64,000 nucleotides of DNA from a virus. Its lineage: Duplodnaviria > Heunggongvirae > Uroviricota > Caudoviricetes. The stretch is taken from the IMG/VR virus record IMGVR_UViG_3300042901_002340; one strand, given 5' to 3'. The notes beneath the pieces were generated by a model. It had not been told where the DNA came from and ran no database searches. It saw only the letters and a list, made by a program, of their open reading frames with translations. Shown piece after piece: positions 29,432-60,926 of this stretch (positions are counted from its first letter, which is position 1; every line of letters begins with the position of its first letter). The position numbers were made by a program, and so were the translations under genes.

Positions 29432-29495
29432 AGATTGATTTATTTTTATTATCTATATATCCCAACATAGATTTTTTTATTTAAGCTTAGACCAT

Positions 29496-29547: not shown

Positions 29548-31272
29548 TTATGCTAAACCACCAGCAGGTATGTTAACATAGAATGTTAAATACATAGTTT
29601 CAGGTAAGAAACCAGCTTCTACTAAAGCATATCTAGATTTAACTGCGATCTTAGGTGACATAGTACCTTCAGAGATTGTCTGAATAGACTCCGCCATCAT
29701 GTAAGGCATGAATTTTAATCCTGGTTCGTCATCACCACCTTTTCTTCCGATTAACACTCTCGTATCATTGTAGTTCATGTTCTGATCTACATATACTGTC
29801 ATACCAGCAAGAGAACCTACAGGGTATAAAGTACCGTTGTTTTGAGTTAATGTGTTAGAGAATGGTGCGAAAGTGAACTGAGAGATATCTTGAAGTGCAC
29901 TTGCTACTGCAGCGTTAGTAACAACGAAGTTAGCAGGACCTCTTCTACCTCTGTTAGCTACTACGTTTGCAGCTGCAAGGATTCTAGAGAATAATCTTCT
30001 TTGAAGAGTTGATAAGTTCTCATATCCACCTGATGCAGGACCATTAGGAATTGGCATAACAACACCAGTATTAGATTTATTTACGTATGCAGCAGTATTA
30101 CCAGCATTTGTACTACCTAAAACAAGGTTTAAGTTTAAGTTTTGTTGTTCAACATTGTTGAATTGAACGTGGTTAGACCAACCTAATGCAAACGCTCTTG
30201 ATAAGATGTGTTTGTTAATAGATTGAGATACCTCATTAACCAATGCGTTCTCGATCATTGAAATAACGTCGATACCGAATTGTTTGTTAAGGTCTTGTAT
30301 TTGCTCTGTTGTAACAGAAGCAGCTACTTGGAATGTCTCAGCTTCAACAAATTTAGTGAAAGTCGAAAGACCCATTGAGTTAAAGTAAGTAGACTCACCA
30401 ACTCCTCTTAACATAGGATCATAATTTTTAGTACCATCTACGTAAGGACCTTGCCAGTCATTAGTGTTGTTAAAACCAGCACCAGAGAAACCTTGGATGT
30501 GATCTTCTAAAGCTTTAACTAATTGAGCAGCAAATCCATTTGGAGAATAAGAAGCTCCAGTTGATAATGCAGGACCAGCAATACCGAAGTTAGTAAGTGC
30601 AGTTGGAGTACCATTGATATAAGAAGCAACGTTAGATCCAGCAGCCATACCCATTACTTCAAATATTGGGAAACCGTCAATTCTAGAAAGACCAACAAAT
30701 GTTAATTGTAATGTACCGATGTTACCAGTAGCACCAACAGTTGGGAATGAAGCTGCAGTAGCACCAGTAGCACCAGTAGCACCTGATCCAGTATAAACTG
30801 GGAATTTGATCATTGTAGGGGCAGTAGCTAATTGTTCAGCAGCCGTACCCGCAGCAGCAGCACCAATTTTACCACCAGCGTATACATAGTCTAAGTATGA
30901 TAAGATACCAGTTGGACCTGACATAGGAATAACAGGAACGATATCAAAACCGATTGTTTTTGCAGCAACTTGAATTGCTAAAGGTAATAAAGATGGGAAT
31001 TTATCTCCAGATCCTTGGTTACCAGTGTTATAGAAACCTGCATTAGCATTACCACCTTGGAATGAAGCCATTCCTGGATAAGCTGGGGGAGCAACGCTAC
31101 CCATACCATTAACAACACCTAAAGAGTTATAAGCTCCAGCAGACTCGTTTAATGAGTGATAGTGGCAATATTTAGTTAACCACCCTTTTTTTCCTTCATC
31201 TGTGATACCAGCTTTGCTCTCGATAAGCGGTGACCATGTATCGTAGATTTCTTGTTCGTTAATCAATTTCAT
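29548..31272 (-). CDS. Major capsid protein, T4 gp23-like
   Basis: IGFDIVPVIPMSGPTG, TTEQIQDL...GID, RGRRGPANFVV, GLKFMPY and TMSPKIAVKSRYAL motifs. Confidence 0.92.
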   Translation of the reverse strand: MKLINEQEIYDTWSPLIESKAGITDEGKKGWLTKYCHYHSLNESAGAYNSLGVVNGMGSVAPPAYPGMASFQGGNANAGFYNTGNQGSGDKFPSLLPLAIQVAAKTIGFDIVPVIPMSGPTGILSYLDYVYAGGKIGAAAAGTAAEQLATAPTMIKFPVYTGSGATGATGATAASFPTVGATGNIGTLQLTFVGLSRIDGFPIFEVMGMAAGSNVASYINGTPTALTNFGIAGPALSTGASYSPNGFAAQLVKALEDHIQGFSGAGFNNTNDWQGPYVDGTKNYDPMLRGVGESTYFNSMGLSTFTKFVEAETFQVAASVTTEQIQDLNKQFGIDVISMIENALVNEVSQSINKHILSRAFALGWSNHVQFNNVEQQNLNLNLVLGSTNAGNTAAYVNKSNTGVVMPIPNGPASGGYENLSTLQRRLFSRILAAANVVANRGRRGPANFVVTNAAVASALQDISQFTFAPFSNTLTQNNGTLYPVGSLAGMTVYVDQNMNYNDTRVLIGRKGGDDEPGLKFMPYMMAESIQTISEGTMSPKIAVKSRYALVEAGFLPETMYLTFYVNIPAGGLA

Positions 31273-33254: not shown

Positions 33255-33313
33255 ATTTTTATGTTACTTATATATCAACGGATATATCAGTATTTTTTCG
33301 ATTTTTTATCGAA

Positions 33314-36897: not shown

Positions 36898-36934
36898 AAA
36901 AAAAGCTTTCCTTTATATATCCAAGGAAAGCTTT
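36898..36934 (-). terminator. Intrinsic terminator whose loop contains a late-promoter motif
   Basis: aaagctttcctt-tatatatcc-aaggaaagcttt with an A7 tract. Confidence 0.8.
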
Positions 36935-39679: not shown

Positions 39680-39690
39680 CCTCTATATAT

Positions 39691-40113
39691 CTATTTTTTT
39701 AAACCTATCTGATCAGAAACATCTATCATCCAAGCGTTATATTTATCCGGATAGAATTCTTTTAATTGGGAAAGATCCCTTCTGGATATCCTATATCTAT
39801 CACAGATAAAAATTTCAACCTCACTATAATCAGAGGTTTTAGTTTTTTTCCCCACACTTTCCTTCTTTATTGTTTTAGTGTATATCCAGGATGGGGGTTT
39901 GGAAAATCTATTTGATAATGTATTCCTCCACCAATCGACCACAAAATGAGGGGTTACTCTCATTTTGTTAAATTGGTTTGCCTGTACTGGAAACTGTATA
40001 GACATGATTCTATTTATCATGAAGAAGTTTCGTGTCTTATCGTTCTTGCCGACTGAATCCCAGGTTCTTTGATTTTTTGAGAATATATTTTTTACTATAT
40101 CAAAAAGCTCCAT
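39691..40113 (-). CDS. Putative clamp-loader small subunit (gp62-like)
   Basis: ELFDIVKNIF...FFMINRIMS...ANQFN pattern, in the clamp-loader operon. Confidence 0.5.
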   Translation of the reverse strand: MELFDIVKNIFSKNQRTWDSVGKNDKTRNFFMINRIMSIQFPVQANQFNKMRVTPHFVVDWWRNTLSNRFSKPPSWIYTKTIKKESVGKKTKTSDYSEVEIFICDRYRISRRDLSQLKEFYPDKYNAWMIDVSDQIGLKK

Positions 40114-44137: not shown

Positions 44138-44156
44138 GTTTAAAAAAATAAAACAC

Positions 44157-44188
44157 AAAAAAAAGGAATATTTTCATATTCCTTTTTT
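44157..44188 (-). terminator. Intrinsic terminator after the portal genes
   Basis: aaaaaaggaatat-tttc-atattcctttttt. Confidence 0.8.
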
Positions 44189-44191
44189 ATT

Positions 44192-45841
44192 CTATAGAGT
44201 TACTTGTGGGGGTTTTTCTTCGCCCTCTCCCGCGGGCGGTGTTTCCTCAGTGGCTCCTGGTGCAGGCTGTTCACCTCCTCCTTCAGCCGGAGCTGGAGCA
44301 GCCGCTGCTTTCTCCTCATTCTTCTTATATTCGTCATTCAATTTAAGTTGGTCTGGTGACATACCTAAAAATCTCTGTATAAGGAAATCATTATCGAAAT
44401 ATGGTACATCCTCCTCACCAGATTTCACTTTAAGATCCGCAAGACCCACTATAAATTCACCTTTCTTTTTAAGATTTGTCATTTCAACCTGATCCTCGAA
44501 TTCAAGATCTCTATTAAAATCTAAACCGATATTGGATTTAAAATTTCTATCTTTGGCTAATTCAGGATAATCGAGACACATTTGTATATAAAGGGGTTTT
44601 ACTAATATTTCCTGAAAAATCGATCTAAGTCTTCTTAAGAATTTCTCAAATCTTATCTCATCTCTCTCCAATTGATCTATGGCTATCTGATAGTTAGCCG
44701 GGGTTCCGTTTTTTGCTGCAAATCTTGCATAAGGAATTTTAGAATCCATCTTTAACTTATTAAAGAAATAAAGAACATTGTCCATCACATTAAAATCTGG
44801 TCCAGCAGGATTAAGAGAAGATATTTCAGGAGAAACTCCATTCTGTTCAGGAAATAAATAATTCTTATAGAATTGTACCTTAGGTCTACCATTAACTGTT
44901 AATTCCCCCGATGAGTCATTTATACTAATTTCCTCCTTATAATTGGACATAAGTTGTCCAAGGGTCTGCATAGCCTTTTGTGGTGATTGTGTACCGATCG
45001 GTATAATGAATTTCATTCGGTAACTAGCATTCATAACATTCCAAATAACCCTGGAATTTTCCATTATTCTTAGAATATTATAAGATCTAACAAGTCTTTC
45101 AACGTAACTAGTTCTTGATATGGTATTACCCTTAGCATATGAGATGTATATTATTTGTTCATTAGTAAGCTTTCTATACATCTGTGGATTACCCGGATAT
45201 TGAATCCAGAATTGTTTATATTCACTCTCTCCAACTCTTTCAACCACAGGTTCAAGCGAAGCTGCATCCAATTCCTTGAATCCTATTATTTCCTTGCCCT
45301 TACTATCATAAATAATCTCAAATGCTAGAAACCCATCTATGATAAACTGTCTAAAATATTGCCAACCTAAAACTGTATTTTGAAACTGAAATATATTATA
45401 GATTCTATTAAAATGAGACATTACTTTTTCTTTCACCTTATCTTTCAGATCCAGATTTGAAAATGAAGGTTGTGCAAAATAATTTCTGTCATCATAAACT
45501 ATAGCCTCGTCAGTTATTATATCAAGTATAAATTCAATCTCTCCATTTATTGAGAATTTTCTAAGGTAGTTTCTTTTTTCGATATATGACTTATCGAAAT
45601 ATGCTATATACTTTCTTACCTTTGTGTCATGGTAGGAAGCGGTCCATTGAAATGCACTATCCTTTGTATATCCTGTTCCCTCCTGATTAAAAAAAGCTCC
45701 CTCGGTCCTACCTATAGCCTGCGAGTTCCTAACAATCATATCATCATATTGCATACCAAACTTGGAAATATTACCAAGATTTTTCAATATGTTACCTAAT
45801 GCTGCTTGATTTGGTTTTAAATAGTCTAAAAATCCTGCCAT
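44192..45841 (-). CDS. Portal protein, gp20-like (paralogue B)
   Basis: EIEFILDIITDEAI, FRQFIIDG, SYVERLVRSYNILRIMENSRVIW, YFFNKL..DSKIP and RDEIRFEKFLRRLRSIF. Confidence 0.88.
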   Translation of the reverse strand: MAGFLDYLKPNQAALGNILKNLGNISKFGMQYDDMIVRNSQAIGRTEGAFFNQEGTGYTKDSAFQWTASYHDTKVRKYIAYFDKSYIEKRNYLRKFSINGEIEFILDIITDEAIVYDDRNYFAQPSFSNLDLKDKVKEKVMSHFNRIYNIFQFQNTVLGWQYFRQFIIDGFLAFEIIYDSKGKEIIGFKELDAASLEPVVERVGESEYKQFWIQYPGNPQMYRKLTNEQIIYISYAKGNTISRTSYVERLVRSYNILRIMENSRVIWNVMNASYRMKFIIPIGTQSPQKAMQTLGQLMSNYKEEISINDSSGELTVNGRPKVQFYKNYLFPEQNGVSPEISSLNPAGPDFNVMDNVLYFFNKLKMDSKIPYARFAAKNGTPANYQIAIDQLERDEIRFEKFLRRLRSIFQEILVKPLYIQMCLDYPELAKDRNFKSNIGLDFNRDLEFEDQVEMTNLKKKGEFIVGLADLKVKSGEEDVPYFDNDFLIQRFLGMSPDQLKLNDEYKKNEEKAAAAPAPAEGGGEQPAPGATEETPPAGEGEEKPPQVTL

Positions 45842-45845
45842 CTTA

Positions 45846-47462
45846 TTATAATGTTACTTGAGGTGGTTTTTCTTCTCCTCCTTCTTTTTTGCCTTCCTCG
45901 CCTTCTTTAGGTTTCTCTGCCTTTGCTTTTTCTTTCGCTTTTCTTTCTTTGGCTTCCTTATTTGCTGTTATATCTTGCTTCGACATCCCTAGATATTCCT
46001 CAATAAGGAAAGCATTAGAGAAGAAAGGTTTTCCTTCGTCATTTAGAAGTCCTCCAAGACCAGTTATGGTCTCTTTCCTTTGTGCCATCTTTGCTATTTC
46101 CTGATTCTCTTTAAATGGATTATCCGACCAATAGCTAAGACCCAATTGACTTTTAAAAAGGAAATCTTTCTCCAGTTGCGGATACTTATTAACCATCTGT
46201 ATCCACATAGGCTTAACTAATATTTCCTGGAAAACAGATCTAAGTCTAGAAATAAATTTATAAAATCTTATCTCTTCTTTATCTAGACCTTCCGCACCAT
46301 TCGAATATGGAGATGTACTACCACCATCAGGATTGTGAAATCTCGAAGGAGGAACTTTAGACTCAAGTATAAACTTATCAAAGAAATATGTCAATGGAGC
46401 AGGATCATTAAGATTAGGACCCTCCGTATTAATAGGCTCTATAGTTGGTGTACCATTAACTCCAGAAGGCATAAGGTAGTTTTTATAGAATTGTATTTTA
46501 GGTCTACCATCAACTGTAAGTTCACCACTCTCATCATTAAGTTGTATATCTTCTTTATAAACACTCATAAGTTCACCCAATGTTTGCATACCTTTTTGTT
46601 GAGATTTAGTCCCGATTGGAACAGTCATCTTCAATTTAAAGGAAGCATTCATAACAGACCATATGACTCTCGTATATTCTATTATTCTCAATATATTATA
46701 GGGTCTTATTAATCTCTCGATGTAACTAACCCTAGATATAGAGTTTCCTTTAGCATATGAGATATAGATTATCTGAGGATCATAAAGGGTTCTTTTCTTC
46801 TTGGGATCCTGTGGATATTGTGTCCATGTGCTAACAAAACTACCATCCAGTTGTTTTTCAACACTTGGTATTAAAGTTACAGGATCAAGTTCCTTGAAAC
46901 CAACTATTTTTTTACCGGTATCGTCATAAACGATCTCAAACGAAAGAAATCCGTCTATAATGAATTGTCTAAAGTATTGCCATGCAGTTATATCATCAGA
47001 GAATCCCCATATATCATACAGATTTTTATAAACATCATAGAGTTCATCCTTGACTTTCTCGTTTACGTCAGTCAAATCTATAAAATCTGGATATGCAAAA
47101 AAGTTTGCTGGATCATAAGTTATAGCTTCATCACAGATTGTATCAAGAACCCATTCAACCTCCGGATTAAGAGAAAACATTCTTAAAAAGTCCCTCTTTC
47201 CCTTATAATCTTTATCAAAATAACCTATAAATTGTCTGGTGGTAACATCCTGCTTTGCAAGAGCCCATAACATACTCTCGTCCTCGACATTTGACTTATT
47301 TTTATTAAGAAATGCTGCTTCAGTTACACCGACAGCTTGCGAATTTCTTATTACCATATCATCATACTTCATACCAAAGGTACTCAGTTTTTTAACTGAT
47401 TCCCTTATTCTCTGTACAACCGGTGATTCCGATGGCTTATTATTATCTACAAAACCTGCCAT
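45846..47462 (-). CDS. Portal protein, gp20-like (paralogue A)
   Basis: PEVEWVLDTICDEAI, FRQFIIDG, SYIERLIRPYNILRIIE, SKVPPSRF and EEIRFYKFISRLRSVF. Confidence 0.88.
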   Translation of the reverse strand: MAGFVDNNKPSESPVVQRIRESVKKLSTFGMKYDDMVIRNSQAVGVTEAAFLNKNKSNVEDESMLWALAKQDVTTRQFIGYFDKDYKGKRDFLRMFSLNPEVEWVLDTICDEAITYDPANFFAYPDFIDLTDVNEKVKDELYDVYKNLYDIWGFSDDITAWQYFRQFIIDGFLSFEIVYDDTGKKIVGFKELDPVTLIPSVEKQLDGSFVSTWTQYPQDPKKKRTLYDPQIIYISYAKGNSISRVSYIERLIRPYNILRIIEYTRVIWSVMNASFKLKMTVPIGTKSQQKGMQTLGELMSVYKEDIQLNDESGELTVDGRPKIQFYKNYLMPSGVNGTPTIEPINTEGPNLNDPAPLTYFFDKFILESKVPPSRFHNPDGGSTSPYSNGAEGLDKEEIRFYKFISRLRSVFQEILVKPMWIQMVNKYPQLEKDFLFKSQLGLSYWSDNPFKENQEIAKMAQRKETITGLGGLLNDEGKPFFSNAFLIEEYLGMSKQDITANKEAKERKAKEKAKAEKPKEGEEGKKEGGEEKPPQVTL

Positions 47463-47499
47463 TTATTTTATTTTTTGATATTTATATATCGAGATTCCA

Positions 47500-47985
47500 C
47501 TATCTACTCTTAAATAAAAAATTCTCGTCTATAACCCCGAATCTGTAGCCCCTCTTATCAGCCCATTCTTTAGCTGCCTTAAATTTGGCCTGGTTTGTTA
47601 TCCAAATTTGCATATTTCTATTATAGGATTTCAACTTAGCCATTGTTACTACACCTTCCATTATGGGTTTAATGGTTTGCTTTTCTGGTTTTATTTCTAT
47701 TATCCATTCCTGTTCATTGGTATCCTCCTTTAAGACTTTAATGTAAAAATCAACATTGTAATTATGATCCTTCTTATCAAGAGGATTGTAATAAGGTATA
47801 ACAACAGGTTCGGAACTCCACTTTAGTATTGCTTCGTTGGTGTCACAATACGTACAAAATCTATATTCCCATGATGATCTATAAATGATATTATGGATAT
47901 CACCTATGTACTTATCGGGATTTTTCGGGTCGTATTTTCCCGATTTATATTCACCGTTAGGTTTTATCTTCTTAATATCTGGCAT
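47500..47985 (-). CDS. Head completion nuclease, T4 gp4-like
   Basis: GKYDPKNPDKYIGD..IIYRSSWE, WSSE...IPY, YNVDF, IEIKP and NQAKFKAA. Confidence 0.88.
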   Translation of the reverse strand: MPDIKKIKPNGEYKSGKYDPKNPDKYIGDIHNIIYRSSWEYRFCTYCDTNEAILKWSSEPVVIPYYNPLDKKDHNYNVDFYIKVLKEDTNEQEWIIEIKPEKQTIKPIMEGVVTMAKLKSYNRNMQIWITNQAKFKAAKEWADKRGYRFGVIDENFLFKSR

Positions 47986-47988
47986 AAA

Positions 47989-48348
47989 CTAAATATTATA
48001 TGAGTTATCATCACCCGTTATATAACTAAATGGTATAGTAACTGGATTTTTTGGTGGATGTAATTTTTTCCAACCTTTCGCGAATCCATGCTTTGCTATT
48101 TGAGTAAAATAAGCAAATGGATTATTAGATTTCTCAGGATTAAATCTATTCCAGTATTTGCAAAGATCCTCCATGGCAAAGGCCATACAGTCCTCCTTAT
48201 CCTCCGGATCCTTATATGACATTTTTTTAGATATGCCCTCAATCATAAGATTGAACATTTCTATTGTCGCTGGTGTTAATTTCCCGGCATTTTTTGATTC
48301 TATAACTGCTGCCATTAGCTCGCTGTTCTTTACATAAACTTTCGCCAT
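47989..48348 (-). CDS. Late-transcription sigma factor, T4 gp55-like
   Basis: YVKNSEL, FNPEKSNNPFAYFTQIA. Length 119 aa. Confidence 0.85.
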   Translation of the reverse strand: MAKVYVKNSELMAAVIESKNAGKLTPATIEMFNLMIEGISKKMSYKDPEDKEDCMAFAMEDLCKYWNRFNPEKSNNPFAYFTQIAKHGFAKGWKKLHPPKNPVTIPFSYITGDDNSYNI

Positions 48349-48378
48349 TAATTGTTGATTATATTTGGATATTTAGTA

Positions 48379-48406
48379 TTTTAGTTAGTTAATACTAAAA
48401 GATTTC
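48379..48406 (-). promoter_or_regulatory. Candidate ECF-type middle promoter upstream of the gp55-like sigma gene
   Basis: GAAAT-N17-CTAAAA. Related G[AG]AA[CT]-N16-18-[GC]TA[CT]AA sites occur at 8142-8169, 19142-19170, 24489-24516, 38620-38647 and 55305-55331. Confidence 0.5.
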
Positions 48407-48412
48407 ATTCAC

Positions 48413-48447
48413 AAAAAAAGAATGTAGTAAAAAATACTACATTCTTC
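48413..48447 (-). terminator. Intrinsic terminator
   Basis: aagaatgtagta-aaaaa-tactacattctt next to an A-tract, directly after the TAA at 48454. Confidence 0.85.
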
Positions 48448-48453
48448 TTTTAA

Positions 48454-48620
48454 TTATTGTTTCTTTTCACCAGAATCGTCGTTATCGTCCTCAATTTCTT
48501 CAGTTTTACCTGTTGGTGCTTTAGCAAATTTTCCTTTCATCGATTGTACAAAAGGCTTACCTGGTTTATTTTGATCTTCACCCTTTGGAGCGAAATAGAA
48601 GTTGCGGCTTAGTTTTTTTT
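48454..48620 (-). other. Putative -1 frameshift extension (52 aa) of the 856-aa protein
   Basis: GTA AAA AAA AAC TAA (A_AAA_AAC heptamer). The -1 frame reads LSRNFYFAPKGEDQNKPGKPFVQSMKGKFAKAPTGKTEEIEDDNDDSGEKKQ*. Confidence 0.7.
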
Positions 48621-51179
48621 TACTTCCTCGGATTCTTTAATATTATATCCACCACCATAAACTTCACGATCCTTTATATCAGAAGCTTCAAACCTAAAAT
48701 CACCATTCTTGTCATCAGGTGCTGATCTAAGATTATCCTTGCCTAATTCTTTACCATTTACTTTATTATGATTTCCAGGAGCAGCAGCTAAATTCTTTTT
48801 AGCGTTTGCGTTTTTACCTTTACCCATTGCATCATCACCAGGAGCATCGGAAAAATTAGGATCAGTTGTACCTTTAGTTAACTTGGATTTACCCTTTTTA
48901 TCAGGAGCATTAACTAGAGTTTTATTTTTAATAGCTGAAGCAGGAGCTTTTTTGTCATTTCCAGGGGCTTTAGAATAATTAGTTTTAGGTGTTCCGTTTT
49001 TAAGATCAGCCTTAGCCTCATTCATTGTTCTGTTATATCCATGTAATGAATCACCATCCATATCTATCTTTTCGTTGTCCGAAACAGGTGCTTTAGAGAA
49101 TCCGTGCATACCAGCAAGTTTCTTTAACATTTTCTTTTGTTCGCTTTCAGGAAGATCTGATTTATTAAGATTGTTTGATTCTTTAACCTCACCATTCTCA
49201 TCATTATTATCCTGAGAATCCGCAGACTCTTCATTGTTATCAGCAGCTTTATTTAAAGCTTCGTCCAAATCAGCAAGTTCATTTATCTGATGGTCAGCAG
49301 TTTTACCGCTATCCAAAAGAACTGTATATCTTCCGGATGAACCATCAATAGATATAACTTTACCTGTTTCCCCAGATTCCTTAACTTTTACAAAAGAACC
49401 AATATTGAATTTCTGATCCTCAAATAAATCTGGATTTGGTTGTAATTCTATATCCTCATCAATTTTTTGAATCTCTATATTTATTTGGTTCCATTTGGTT
49501 TTGAGTGACTGTAATTCTTTCTCCAACATCAAATGAGCAGCCTGTATTTCCTTCGAATTTTTATAAAGAGGATTAGATTCCATAAGCGTTTCAACTTTGG
49601 TAATTTCACCTTCTATTTTAGAAATATTCTCAAGTACTTTGTTTCTATCGTTAACCATAACAGATTTAACCTTAGATTCTCCATCAAGAAATTCCGTTAA
49701 TCCCTCAGATATATCATATCTCATAAAGTTTTTAACAAGTGCAACTGCCTGAGATCCATTAACCTCATAAAGGGAGTTTTCCCTCATAGCCTCATTTATT
49801 TTCTGAAGATAAATCTGGCCGTTCCATTTAAAAAGATTTATAGAAAGACCTTCATAAACATTTGATGTTATAGATTTAGCAAAATCCAATTCTACTATAT
49901 CGGAATAGTTTGTATAAAGAGTCATTATATCTCCAACAACTTCAGATTCATTAACACCAAAATATGAAGAGGATTCAAGACCTATTATTTTAGCAAGTCC
50001 TACTGAATCGCCAAATCTAAGTTTATCCTTCCCAAGATAAACAGCTACGTTATTATTTTCCTCCACCATGGTAACTATTTTTTTACCAAGCTTAACTGAG
50101 ATACCCGATTCGTTTATTCTAACGTGGGGTTTCATTGTGGTTAAGGAAAGTCTTAAATAATTTTCAGAAAGAGATGAATATTCATTTTTAGATAACTTTC
50201 TTAGTGAATTAGACGTAGCCTCAAAGATACATCCACCAATGAAGAAGAATGTTCTACCGTTTTCGAAAAGAACCGGAGAATAAACTTTAGAAACGCTTGA
50301 CTCTCCCTGGATGTTAACAGGTACTTCTAATTTTCTACCATCTGAGCTTTCATGTATGTTTAGAAAGTTTATAAGATTTTTAATAACAGGATTGAAACTA
50401 AATTTAGAAATATTTCTTACTAGCAATCCGTTTGATTTATTTTCAGAAACCAACCACTCATTAAGTGTTTCTGACAATTCAGAATAAAATGATGAGCTAC
50501 CGCTATTTTTAATAGATTCAAGAACTTTAGCAACCTCTATTTCTCTGGAGAATGATTTTGCTTTCTCTTTTAGTTCCTCAGCAATAGGTGCTATAGAAGA
50601 ATCCCAAGAAAAAGATGCAAGTTCATTAACAAAATTATTTATAAGTGAAAATTCAGGAATATTTTTATTATCCAAAAGATATTGATATTGTTCGCAAACC
50701 ATTTTTGCCTTAGGGTATGTATAGATTGAAGATTCTTTTATCTTCTCTATAGCACTTCTAATACCAAGATTCTTTATCCCTTGTGTTTCCACAAAAGATT
50801 TTGCAGCAAGATCAGAAGTTCCTAAATTGCTAATGCTCTCATATAAGGAATTTTCAGCATCCTTATTTTCTTTTGGTTTGTCTGAATAAGATCCACTATT
50901 ATTACCGGAGGTAGATTTTCCTAGACCTCCCCATGATTCCATTAGTGAAGCAGCAGCTTTTTTAGAGATCTCTGACTCCTCTTTTTTTATTAAATCCATA
51001 TGATTTTGTATGTTATTTCCGGTATTATCCAAATCCATAGACGTGTTATGTTCGTTAATCAAAACTACCAATTTCTCCTTAGAAATAGAACCACCACTAA
51101 GGTAGCTTTCACATAAAGCTCTAACTTCAGGGGATTTTGTAATTTCTTTTACTTTCTTAACTTGATCTATAAAGTCCAT
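48609..51179 (-). CDS. Large putative prohead core/head protein
   Basis: 856 aa under a late promoter, with many [ILV]xES protease-like sites, a coiled coil, an SH3-like domain and C-terminal xxAP repeats. Confidence 0.5.
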   Translation of the reverse strand: MDFIDQVKKVKEITKSPEVRALCESYLSGGSISKEKLVVLINEHNTSMDLDNTGNNIQNHMDLIKKEESEISKKAAASLMESWGGLGKSTSGNNSGSYSDKPKENKDAENSLYESISNLGTSDLAAKSFVETQGIKNLGIRSAIEKIKESSIYTYPKAKMVCEQYQYLLDNKNIPEFSLINNFVNELASFSWDSSIAPIAEELKEKAKSFSREIEVAKVLESIKNSGSSSFYSELSETLNEWLVSENKSNGLLVRNISKFSFNPVIKNLINFLNIHESSDGRKLEVPVNIQGESSVSKVYSPVLFENGRTFFFIGGCIFEATSNSLRKLSKNEYSSLSENYLRLSLTTMKPHVRINESGISVKLGKKIVTMVEENNNVAVYLGKDKLRFGDSVGLAKIIGLESSSYFGVNESEVVGDIMTLYTNYSDIVELDFAKSITSNVYEGLSINLFKWNGQIYLQKINEAMRENSLYEVNGSQAVALVKNFMRYDISEGLTEFLDGESKVKSVMVNDRNKVLENISKIEGEITKVETLMESNPLYKNSKEIQAAHLMLEKELQSLKTKWNQINIEIQKIDEDIELQPNPDLFEDQKFNIGSFVKVKESGETGKVISIDGSSGRYTVLLDSGKTADHQINELADLDEALNKAADNNEESADSQDNNDENGEVKESNNLNKSDLPESEQKKMLKKLAGMHGFSKAPVSDNEKIDMDGDSLHGYNRTMNEAKADLKNGTPKTNYSKAPGNDKKAPASAIKNKTLVNAPDKKGKSKLTKGTTDPNFSDAPGDDAMGKGKNANAKKNLAAAPGNHNKVNGKELGKDNLRSAPDDKNGDFRFEASDIKDREVYGGGYNIKESEEVKKN

Positions 51180-51262
51180 GGTTTACTTTTTTTTTTATTG
51201 ATTATATATCCATACAAGGACAAGAAACTTTTTACTATATATTTGATAAGAGAAATATTTTA

Positions 51263-51748
51263 TCACCTTCCTATTAATATCTCCAGTTTTATCTGAAAGT
51301 CATTATGCGGGTTGTTAAATATCATTCCTCCGTTATTTAAGTATTCATTAGGTTTTGCTAAATTCCAGCCCTCATAAGAAGAATCTGTAGTATATTGCTT
51401 ACTTCCAGAAAGTATCATCAATTCTCCCATATTCATAACTTGGCCATTATATGTCCAAGTTAGATATTTTTTAGATTCAACAACAGTAGTAGGAAATTTT
51501 GCTTTTATAGCAATGAAAGAAACATAACCCATTTCATCACCTATAGCTCCCTGACTTAATAGGAATGATTCCCCCGCATTAAGAGAAACCCGACTTTTAG
51601 AAAATGATTCAACACCTATAAAGAGATCCTTCATGGAAAGATATTTGGGTGGTGATGACTTTGTTCCGTCATCTAAAACTAAATTTTCTTTATAAAATCT
51701 AAATCCTTCCGGTGTTTGATAAGGACATTCTACTGGTCTTGTTGCCAT
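51263..51748 (-). CDS. Hypothetical structural protein (paralogue of the next gene)
   Basis: MGELMILSG...GWN...NGGMIFNNP, shared with 51750..52439. Confidence 0.55.
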   Translation of the reverse strand: MATRPVECPYQTPEGFRFYKENLVLDDGTKSSPPKYLSMKDLFIGVESFSKSRVSLNAGESFLLSQGAIGDEMGYVSFIAIKAKFPTTVVESKKYLTWTYNGQVMNMGELMILSGSKQYTTDSSYEGWNLAKPNEYLNNGGMIFNNPHNDFQIKLEILIGR

Positions 51749-51749
51749 A

Positions 51750-52439
51750 TTAATTTGCTGTTATTATTGTTAATTTCACAACTAATTCTGTTGGGTTAGT
51801 AAATATAAATCCACCATTAGCGCTATTGGGTAAATCGGAGTGATTATATGTGCTGAATGGATCTATATCCCATCCTTTCCAATTGACCCCCTCCTTTATT
51901 GCTCCGGTTAAAACCATAAAATCACCCATCAAATTTCTTTGTGATCCTAGATAATCCCAGAATAATACTCTATCATCATCCTTAGCTTCCGGTAAATATT
52001 CAGCTCTTGCAATTAGCATAGATATCTCCCCGTTTGTATCCATAAATGATCCTGGATCCAGATTGAAAGATGTTGTTGGATTTATTATTATTGTTTGTTT
52101 CTGGTAATTTGAAAAACTCTGAAGAGGATGGAAAAATTCAGCAACATCAATAAAATCCAAAACCTGTGATTGGTAAACAACGTCGAATGACTCCTTTATA
52201 AATTTAATACCAACAGGATCATTAAATCGCTGAAAAGTTGCTTCTATCTGTTTAAATTGACTTGTGTCTAATGCTATATTTCTATACTCCGTCTTAAAAG
52301 ATCCAGTAGCACCATTTGTTGGTTCCTGATTGGGGCTTATAGGGAAACCTGAACCACCTCCGGATATCTCATTACCGCCAGGAAATACAGATGATCCACC
52401 ATCGTAATTATTTATGCTAGGATTTTCTAAATTTTGCAC
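51750..52439 (-). CDS. Hypothetical structural protein (paralogue)
   Basis: MGDFMVLTG...GWD...NGGFIFTNP. GTG start. Confidence 0.55.
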   Translation of the reverse strand: MQNLENPSINNYDGGSSVFPGGNEISGGGSGFPISPNQEPTNGATGSFKTEYRNIALDTSQFKQIEATFQRFNDPVGIKFIKESFDVVYQSQVLDFIDVAEFFHPLQSFSNYQKQTIIINPTTSFNLDPGSFMDTNGEISMLIARAEYLPEAKDDDRVLFWDYLGSQRNLMGDFMVLTGAIKEGVNWKGWDIDPFSTYNHSDLPNSANGGFIFTNPTELVVKLTIITAN

Positions 52440-59781: not shown

Positions 59782-60357
59782 TTATAAAAATAGATCCTCC
59801 CAGTAATCACAAACCCATGATGTTCTTATGGTATAGATAGCAGGAGTTTCATAATCAAGATCCATTGCGTTTATAGGTTCACTTATGAAGCAAGAAGGAA
59901 TTCTTATTCTTCTAAAAACATCACCTTGTTTATTAAATATTGAAATTAGGATGGATCCAACATAGTCATTTTTAAGACCCATCGCTCCAGTTAGAGGATT
60001 ATAGATCAAATCAGACCATTGTCTAAGTATTTTGTAAAGCTCCATAGAATTGGAGTTATTAAGGTTGACCTCAAATTCCATGGAAAGATTCATATCACTA
60101 GTTTGAGGTTCACCTCCAGCATATCTTCTGGTAGCAAACTTATAGTTTTGATTTACCGTCTGTGCAGGAGCAATATCAACAGCTAATCCTGTTATAGATT
60201 TAACCTGCTGAGTCAATATGCTTTCACCATTAAAAGTTGTACTAGCCGAAACTATAGCAGCAGGTGGGCTTATCAGTACTTCAAACTGATTAAGAAATAC
60301 AGGCTCAAAATTATTTATACCTGCAAGTGAATTTGTAAAATGTGGTAATCCAGCCAT
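59782..60357 (-). CDS. Tail tube protein (paralogue 2)
   Basis: 191 aa downstream of the sheath. EPVFLNQFEV, RQWSDLIYNPLTG and DYW. Confidence 0.85.
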   Translation of the reverse strand: MAGLPHFTNSLAGINNFEPVFLNQFEVLISPPAAIVSASTTFNGESILTQQVKSITGLAVDIAPAQTVNQNYKFATRRYAGGEPQTSDMNLSMEFEVNLNNSNSMELYKILRQWSDLIYNPLTGAMGLKNDYVGSILISIFNKQGDVFRRIRIPSCFISEPINAMDLDYETPAIYTIRTSWVCDYWEDLFL

Positions 60358-60371
60358 TTATATTTTTTATT

Positions 60372-60926
60372 TTATAGGAATAGATCGTCCCAATAATCAA
60401 CGGCAAATACCATATCATCTATCTTATATAGATCAGTACTTGTGTAGTTTAGATTCATTGGTGAGATAGGTTTAGTCGGAAACGTATCCTTGCATGTTAT
60501 TCTCCTATAAACGTCACCAGCTTTATTGAAAACCGAAATAATTATAGTTCCAGTGTAGTCATTTTTAAGACCCATCGCTCCAGTTAGAGGATTATAGATC
60601 AAATCAGACCACTGTCTTAAAGTTTTAAAGACGTACATGGAATTTGCATCATTAAGGTTGACGCTGAACGTTATACTAAGATCCATAAAGGTATTCTCAG
60701 GTTTCGATCCCGCATAATTCCTTTTAGCAAATTTATATTTCTGTTGAACCGTTCCTGGATTTTTATCTAGAGAAAGTCCATTAACCTTGCTAACGTGTTG
60801 TAATAAAATGTTACCACCCGCTATAGCAGCCGGTGGTATTATTGTTACCTCGAATTGATTCAGATAAACAGGTTCATACTTGTTTATCGATGATAGTGAA
60901 TTTTGATAATGTGATAGTCCTGCCAT
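60372..60926 (-). CDS. Tail tube protein (paralogue 1)
   Basis: 184 aa directly after the sheath, with the same motifs. Confidence 0.85.
   Translation of the reverse strand: MAGLSHYQNSLSSINKYEPVYLNQFEVTIIPPAAIAGGNILLQHVSKVNGLSLDKNPGTVQQKYKFAKRNYAGSKPENTFMDLSITFSVNLNDANSMYVFKTLRQWSDLIYNPLTGAMGLKNDYTGTIIISVFNKAGDVYRRITCKDTFPTKPISPMNLNYTSTDLYKIDDMVFAVDYWDDLFL

Follow-up and report, generated by a model that had tools for sequence, protein, structure and literature searches.

What does a tailed phage do with two portal genes? A portal made of twelve copies of one gene product ranks among the least variable traits of tailed phages and herpesviruses. The question is raised by the IMG/VR virus record IMGVR_UViG_3300042901_002340, a 430,120-bp genome of an uncultured giant phage with direct terminal repeats, in which two portal genes of the T4 gp20 type lie in tandem. 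The stretch analysed here, hereafter the window, comprises 64,000 nucleotides and is the minus strand of bases 255430-319429 of that record. We refer to the two genes as portal paralogues A and B. The two portals have diverged from each other and are equally constrained, which suggests a DNA-entry ring made of two kinds of subunit. The reading that we consider most likely, with a probability of roughly one half, is that A and B co-assemble in one mixed portal ring, most simply A6B6. The two genes are as follows, with the ratio of non-synonymous (dN) to synonymous (dS) substitution rates given as dN/dS.

45846..47462, minus strand: portal paralogue A, the upstream gene (538 amino acids; PF07230, E = 2e-56; support for clade A 100; dN/dS 0.01-0.04)
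44192..45841, minus strand: portal paralogue B, the downstream gene (549 amino acids; PF07230, E = 3e-68; support for clade B 100; dN/dS 0.01-0.04)

The tandem portal genes and their origin

An earlier, sequence-only reading of the window had described two intact gp20-like open reading frames (ORFs) of 538 and 549 amino acids, 4 nucleotides apart and served by one late-promoter motif, and this description is borne out by the ORF calls and by the matches to PF07230 and PHROG 213. Against the Portal_T4 model (PF07230), A scores 192 bits and B 230.8 bits at a cut-off of 22.9, and both span the full model. The portal family PHROG 213 is matched with E = 2e-54 by A and E = 2e-68 by B. Solved T4 gp20 structures are also matched by sequence from both proteins (for B against 3JA7, phmmer E = 2e-21 over residues 94-459). 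With domain limits taken from PMC4493910, and with A and B aligned to gp20 residues 80-465 and beyond, both copies are found to hold every gp20 segment, namely the wing, the stem helices, the clip, the tunnel loop and the crown. The AlphaFold2 model of the A monomer has a predicted local distance difference test score (pLDDT) of 85.2 and a predicted template modelling score (pTM) of 0.80. Its top 13 Foldseek matches are all T4 gp20 chains (9MKB, 9LU7, 6UZC and 3JA7; E = 3e-18 to 2e-14), with a target template modelling score of up to 0.71, and other phage portals rank next. In a model of a fusion of both proteins, B shows its secondary-structure elements in the same order as A. A and B are both confirmed as full-length T4 gp20-type portals.

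The two proteins are 48% identical from end to end and have the blocks WQYFRQFIIDGFL, QIIYISYAKGN and QFYKNYL in common. Both begin with MAGF, as had been pointed out for the pair, but this start is not specific to it: MAGF is the majority N-terminus in single-portal relatives and belongs to the whole family. In the whole 430,120-bp genome, A and B are the only Portal_T4 matches. A gp20-type portal is expected from a single gene; two paralogous genes are found here, and they are kept across two clades. Among 1,324 phage records with a gp20-like match, a second match is present in only two records, which represent one 735-kb genome, and it is a fragment of 101 amino acids. The 101-amino-acid ORF of this 735-kb single-portal phage (LR756501.1:15166-15351) lies far from the true portal gene, and its similarity to the portal model is confined to the C-terminal part (positions 374-431, E = 1.8e-5).

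The pair is not peculiar to this genome. With B as the query, an IMG/VR scan recovered 80 loci at 65-93% identity to it, which we call clade I. All clade-I loci with enough upstream DNA have A upstream and B downstream; both genes are complete in 73 loci (56 distinct pairs), and the order is A upstream and B downstream in 73/73. The identity between A and B within clade-I loci is steady at about 48-52%. A search of 50%-identity cluster representatives yielded one sequence that is sister to clade A, and its IMG/VR relatives make up clade II, again 80 loci. In 79 of them a tandem pair is found, its upstream gene resembling A and its downstream gene resembling B. In the remaining locus (IMGVR_UViG_3300033571_004955), A is split into ORFs of 327 and 178 amino acids, which may be due to a frameshift or a sequencing error; among about 150 loci it is the only one with a portal copy that is not intact. 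Further IMG/VR scans from two other cluster representatives returned no loci (P0127) and two truncated loci only (P0123).

In a tree inferred under a site-heterogeneous model, the A sequences of clades I and II group together (support 98), as do the B sequences of both clades (96), and A joins B (94); every single-portal sequence falls outside this group. The A and B lineages are reciprocally monophyletic. The approximately unbiased (AU) test rejects a grouping of clade-I A with clade-I B (P = 0.0008), and independent duplications are thereby rejected. A phylogeny had been named beforehand as the check on whether A and B are old and stable clades; the mirrored A and B clades in both lineages show that they are. 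As judged by these trees, an origin of the pair by one ancient tandem duplication of a gp20-type portal gene is firmly supported.

The nearest relatives have one portal. They comprise the 462-kb LR756500, the 635-735-kb LR7565xx genomes, the Lak phages and 26 IMG/VR loci (42-49% identity). Since the genomes of the single-portal relatives, at about 280-735 kb, are equal or larger in size, genome size does not explain the second copy, and the idea that larger genomes need two portals is rejected by single-portal relatives that reach 462-735 kb. The portal ORF of one of these relatives, Prevotella phage Lak-A1, contains 10 in-frame TAG codons, and the portals of the window phage contain none. Lak phages recode a stop codon, with which the in-frame TAG codons of Lak-A1 are consistent.

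Constraint, divergence and the C-terminal tail

For A and for B alike, dN/dS is 0.01-0.04, and synonymous sites are saturated even in comparison with the nearest relatives. The dN values of A and B, compared over 1,596 genome pairs, are correlated with r = 0.965 and a slope of 0.91. The stem branches of the A and B clades have lengths of 0.44 and 0.45. Neither A nor B is relaxed or accelerated, and purifying selection on them is strong and equal. No loss of A or B was seen among the complete loci (about 150, with divergence down to about 50% identity), which indicates that each copy is individually needed. Relaxed selection on one paralogue had been singled out as a finding that would speak against a joint role; the low ratios and the absence of loss tell otherwise. 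These comparisons firmly mark both paralogues as indispensable, and as equally constrained.

The two copies also retain the same ancestral core. A set of 20 single portals has 205 conserved columns, of which A and B both preserve 97, while A alone preserves 2 and B alone 3. A complementary loss of ancestral residues, considered as a reason for keeping both copies, is thus minimal at strict thresholds. The conserved columns shared by A and B include 51 in the wing and 36 in the clip.

Differences between the paralogues are concentrated elsewhere. In clade I, A and B each reach at least 90% conservation but differ in residue at 32 columns, and 27 of these lie in stem helix alpha5, the clip, stem helix alpha7, the tunnel loop and helix alpha8. 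The proportion is 27/199 columns in this stem, clip, tunnel-loop and alpha8 core versus 5/350 elsewhere (P = 1e-8 against all columns and P = 4e-4 against the shared-conserved columns, Fisher's test), and the 157-column N-terminal wing contains only one. In T4 gp20, the stem, clip and tunnel region makes the tightest contact between subunits, with an inter-subunit beta-sheet and neighbouring tunnel loops (PMC4493910), and the arms of gp13 insert between the clip helices of adjacent subunits (PMC12929587). Seven inter-subunit salt bridges have been described for gp20 (PMC4493910).

The C-termini were a further point of the sequence-only reading, which had noted an identical nonamer at the end of both proteins. 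The shared end is real, and its length is 10 residues (GEEKPPQVTL), not nine.

45849..45878, minus strand: codons of the A C-terminal decapeptide GEEKPPQVTL (25 of 30 nucleotides identical to the B copy)
44195..44224, minus strand: codons of the B C-terminal decapeptide GEEKPPQVTL (the counterpart of the A copy)

Between the two copies, these codons show 5 synonymous and 0 non-synonymous differences. In single-portal relatives, too, a linker that is acidic or rich in glycine leads to a hydrophobic-x-hydrophobic C-terminus (VDLGF, DIDF, EFEF), which implies that the tail motif is ancestral. We surveyed the motif in 108 distinct two-portal genomes, with the following counts.

Clade I: motif confined to B in 20 genomes and shared by both copies in 33, with no A-only genome; of the others, 2 have a strict motif on A and a weak end on B, and 2 have weak ends on both copies
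Clade II: motif confined to A in 48 genomes, with no genome in the B-only or both-copies class; 3 further genomes have a weak motif on A alone or on both copies

None of the 108 genomes lacks a hydrophobic C-terminal residue on both copies. In genomes with the motif on both copies, identity over positions -10 to -4 is 63% within a genome, versus 42% (A vs B) and 39% (A vs A) between genomes, all figures that ignore phylogenetic kinship. Identical tail runs contain 77 synonymous differences in 181 codons, and one genome has fully identical DNA there. The higher identity within genomes, together with runs that are identical in protein and mostly not in DNA, points to homogenisation of the tails. 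Where both copies carry the motif, the tails evolve in concert, through short and infrequent conversion events, through selection common to A and B, or through a combination of the two. The proposal that both tails bind the same partner is supported in part by this concerted pattern, but whole clades have the motif on one copy, and which copy it is differs by clade. A need for the tail that A or B can satisfy is most easily understood if the two proteins share one assembly. The ancestral docking-type motif, found on either paralogue, marks a likely contact between the portal and an internal partner.

Co-expression and the composition of the portal ring

The arrangement of the two genes was examined together with their flanking elements, which are listed here.

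47479..47490, minus strand: late-promoter-like motif GATATATAAATA, which contains the T4-type TATAAATA, 17 nucleotides before the A start codon
45842..45845, minus strand: spacer between A and B, 4 nucleotides, TAA-taag-ATG (A stop to B start)
44148..44195 (core 44160-44187), minus strand: intrinsic-terminator-like hairpin and U-run directly 3' of the B stop (minimum free energy -14.7 kcal/mol, z = -4.4)
47500..47985, minus strand: T4 gp4-like head completion/closure gene, immediately upstream of the pair (PHROG 218, E = 5e-48)

Conservation of the late-promoter-like motif before A extends to 50 of 51 clade-II loci and to the closest relatives within clade I. The window contains 15 matches to GATATATA against 7.3 expected, 14 of them on the coding strand. 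These sites are mostly just ahead of late-gene starts, typically 5-25 nucleotides before the start codon (for example 29454-29461, 33269-33276, 36914-36921, 39684-39691, 47483-47490 and 51203-51210), and the motif scan of the window found no GATATATA inside the A-B pair. In relatives, the spacer ranges from -1 to 23 nucleotides. Spacers that are in frame usually carry two stop codons, which argues that A and B are separate proteins. Read-through from A into B, or a fusion of the two, was considered and is rejected on the same ground and by the out-of-frame spacer of the window. None of 200 shuffled sequences folds as well as the terminator-like hairpin behind B. The layout shows A and B as a unit transcribed from a single predicted late promoter, and hence as probably co-expressed. 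The genes upstream of the pair encode a gp55-like late sigma factor and the gp4-like head completion protein, those downstream encode DNA ligase and clamp loader proteins, and the window also encodes sheath, two tube, protease-scaffold and major capsid proteins. With its late-promoter motif, its gp4-like and gp55-like neighbours and the structural genes of the window, the pair belongs to a late head and neck module.

How might the two proteins work together? The ancient tandem duplication gave rise to A and B, each complete with wing, stem, clip, tunnel loop, crown and acidic tail. A and B would then co-assemble at the unique capsid vertex as a hetero-oligomer, most simply with alternating subunits (A6B6). 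Such a ring would have six-fold, not twelve-fold, chemical symmetry along the stem, clip and tunnel, where the A/B-specific residues cluster. The flexible acidic tail with its hydrophobic-x-hydrophobic end would serve as a docking peptide inside the capsid, for which the scaffold or core, or another internal partner, is a candidate target, and it would be needed per ring and not per subunit.

Several lines of evidence favour this mixed ring. The genes are adjacent and in the same order (73/73 and 79/80), with tiny spacers and no internal promoter motif. A single duplication was followed by symmetric divergence, and neither copy has been lost. Both copies keep the ancestral core, the A/B-specific sites cluster at the core of the ring, and the tail motif moves between A and B. 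As background, duplication of a homomer leads by default to hetero-oligomers, and co-assembly is favoured when genes are adjacent and translated together. A stricter version of the mixed ring, somewhat less probable, is an obligate, alternating A6B6 hetero-dodecamer, in which a six-fold clip and tunnel would match the six-fold neck and tail, only one subunit type would need the docking tail, and the duplication of the tube gene would be part of the same remodelling of the DNA conduit.

Other observations weigh against a mixed ring. Only 7 A/B-specific sites hold across both clades; 6 of them are in the core, and their enrichment there relative to conserved columns is not significant (P = 0.12). 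The changes at these 7 sites are all conservative (M/F, T/S, L/V, D/E). A charge-swap or other incompatibility signature that would forbid homomers was sought among the A/B-specific sites, and none was found. The AlphaFold2 model of a natural in-frame A-stop-B fusion, with the TAA read as G and with 43 paired rows (pLDDT 52.6, pTM 0.36, stem and clip below 50), holds no interface information. The similarity of tails within genomes is a figure uncorrected for phylogeny. The lineage is known from uncultured genomes, and co-assembly of A and B is inferred.

The pair might instead form two separate homo-dodecamers, A12 and B12, with distinct essential roles. One would be the classical packaging and tail-attachment portal, and the other ring would serve in prohead-core nucleation, at a second special vertex or in separate DNA entry and exit. 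The invariable retention of A and B, and the residues that each conserves within its own clade, fit any non-redundant pair. There is precedent in mimivirus, which has distinct packaging and exit portals (PMC2430901). We nevertheless regard separate rings as less likely. Both copies hold the same wing and clip residues and nearly all of the ancestral conserved positions, and they evolve symmetrically and at equal rates, while acceleration would usually be expected of a repurposed copy. The position of the ancestral tail motif, on A or on B depending on the clade, is hard to square with a fixed division of labour.

The conservation of the capsid-facing wing and of the terminase- and neck-facing clip in both copies disfavours a stacked as well as a relocated ring. 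Two coaxially stacked rings, with one 12-mer in the vertex and the other on top of it as an inner extension or adaptor, would make use of two ring-forming proteins that are made together, and giant capsids might gain from a longer channel. However, a stacked copy would be expected to lose the constraints on its wing or on its clip, and both copies keep both (51 wing and 36 clip columns). The size of the capsid demands no second ring either, given single-portal relatives with genomes of about 280-735 kb. We consider stacking improbable.

The possibility that A and B are alternatives, each virion having either A12 or B12, would imply two particle types or a backup against a portal-sensing defence. 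Such defence systems exist, namely the Avs-type sensors, and both copies share all of the surfaces required for acting alone. If either copy sufficed, however, losses should be common, and there are none in about 150 loci; moreover, one predicted mRNA makes both genes simultaneously. Alternative use of the two portals is very improbable on these grounds. Finally, an assembly artefact or a decaying pseudogene, the former also raised by the sequence-only reading, is refuted by copies that are 48% identical on a complete contig with direct terminal repeats, by the presence of the pair in more than 150 independent assemblies, and by a dN/dS of 0.01-0.04 with saturated dS in both copies. As between a heteromeric ring and a second ring or vertex, the two options that had been left side by side, the indirect evidence leans toward the mixed ring.

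If true, A6B6 would make this the first portal of a tailed virus to be composed of two gene products. The 12-fold portal ring is central to questions of symmetry mismatch, as it meets a 5-fold vertex, a pentameric terminase and a 6-fold tail. A mixed ring would mean that twelve identical subunits are not required, and it would reveal the portal regions in which six-fold chemistry is tolerated or exploited. A large lineage, with contigs abundant in freshwater samples, that has depended on two portal paralogues since one ancient duplication provides a natural experiment in this respect, and T4 gp20 rings have already been made recombinantly. A full-text literature search, which was not exhaustive, found no description of duplicated or heteromeric phage portals. 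New in the present analysis are the second clade with an explicit topology test, the analysis of the tail motif, the null result on complementary residue loss and the asymmetry of the tube pair.

Other paralogues in the genome and comparison with known systems

The window also contains a pair of tail tube genes.

60372..60926, minus strand: tail tube paralogue 1, the conservative, upstream copy (45-49% identical to single tubes)
59782..60357, minus strand: tail tube paralogue 2, the derived, downstream copy (53% identical to paralogue 1; 37-44% identical to single tubes)

A tandem tube pair is present in 6/6 two-portal records checked, and a single tube gene in 5/5 single-portal records checked. 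The tail tube tree, built on 190 columns, leaves one versus several duplications undecided. The pair looks like a main tube and a specialised tube-fold paralogue, which is ordinary for myophages. The earlier suggestion of a broader duplication of subunits therefore receives weak support: the tube pair is real and is distributed as the portal pair is, but it is asymmetric, and the second pair that had been cited (51263/51750) is only 28% identical over 96 amino acids. The two genes of that pair, at 51750-52439 and 51263-51748 on the minus strand, match each other with E = 5e-7, and neither has a PHROG match.

Further paralogues and neck-like sequences were noticed in the rest of the genome. A 301-amino-acid paralogue of the major capsid protein (window 29548-31272, minus strand) is encoded about 215 kb away (genome C1:73784-74689), with 27% identity over 266 amino acids, and it may be a gp24-like vertex protein. 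Just outside the window (genome C1:250906-251073), an ORF of 836 amino acids weakly resembles the T4 neck family PF11649, with a score of 24.2 bits that falls slightly short of the cut-off; no other neck-like match, and no paralogue of this ORF, was seen in the genome. Small proteins of 113-195 amino acids, 23-46% identical to one another, form a multi-copy family with tandem arrays and dispersed copies.

Genome C1:25607-28596, 48211-49356, 68813-69178 and 147964-148775: tandem and dispersed copies of the small-protein family

Among known systems, the closest is T4 gp20 itself (PF07230; PDB 3JA7, 6UZC, 9MKB and 9LU6/9LU7). A and B match the full family model, the A model superposes best on gp20, the domain order is the same from wing, stem, clip, tunnel loop and crown to the acidic C-terminus, and the genes are late genes beside a gp4-like gene. 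However, T4 has one gene and a homododecamer, whereas tandem paralogues are found here, each about 16% identical to gp20 in structural alignment.

Duplication of a structural gene of the head module, with both copies retained, is also seen in T4 gp23/gp24. These are the major capsid protein and its vertex paralogue, which occupy non-equivalent positions in one assembly, gp24 forming pentamers. Unlike the portal pair, which is symmetric in rate and in domain content and is not known to be specialised by position, gp24 is specialised and has diverged asymmetrically. The tube pair has its own counterpart in the tail tube paralogues of myophages, such as T4 gp19 with gp3, gp48 and gp54. Similarly, the second tube gene of the window looks like a derived tube-fold paralogue beside the main tube, but the two are 53% identical, a similarity far above that among the T4 tube-fold paralogues.

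Two different portals in one virus, for DNA exit and for packaging, are known from mimivirus (PMC2430901). Those portals are unrelated proteins in an unrelated lineage and, unlike A and B, not paralogous rings of one fold. A further comparison is with the thermosome/CCT, the proteasome and the V-ATPase proteolipid ring, hetero-oligomeric rings that arose from a duplicated homomeric subunit. Heteromery has been shown biochemically there, whereas for the portal pair it is inferred; what they have in common is a duplicated ring subunit with both copies indispensable, equal constraint on the copies and, possibly, conservative changes near the interface.

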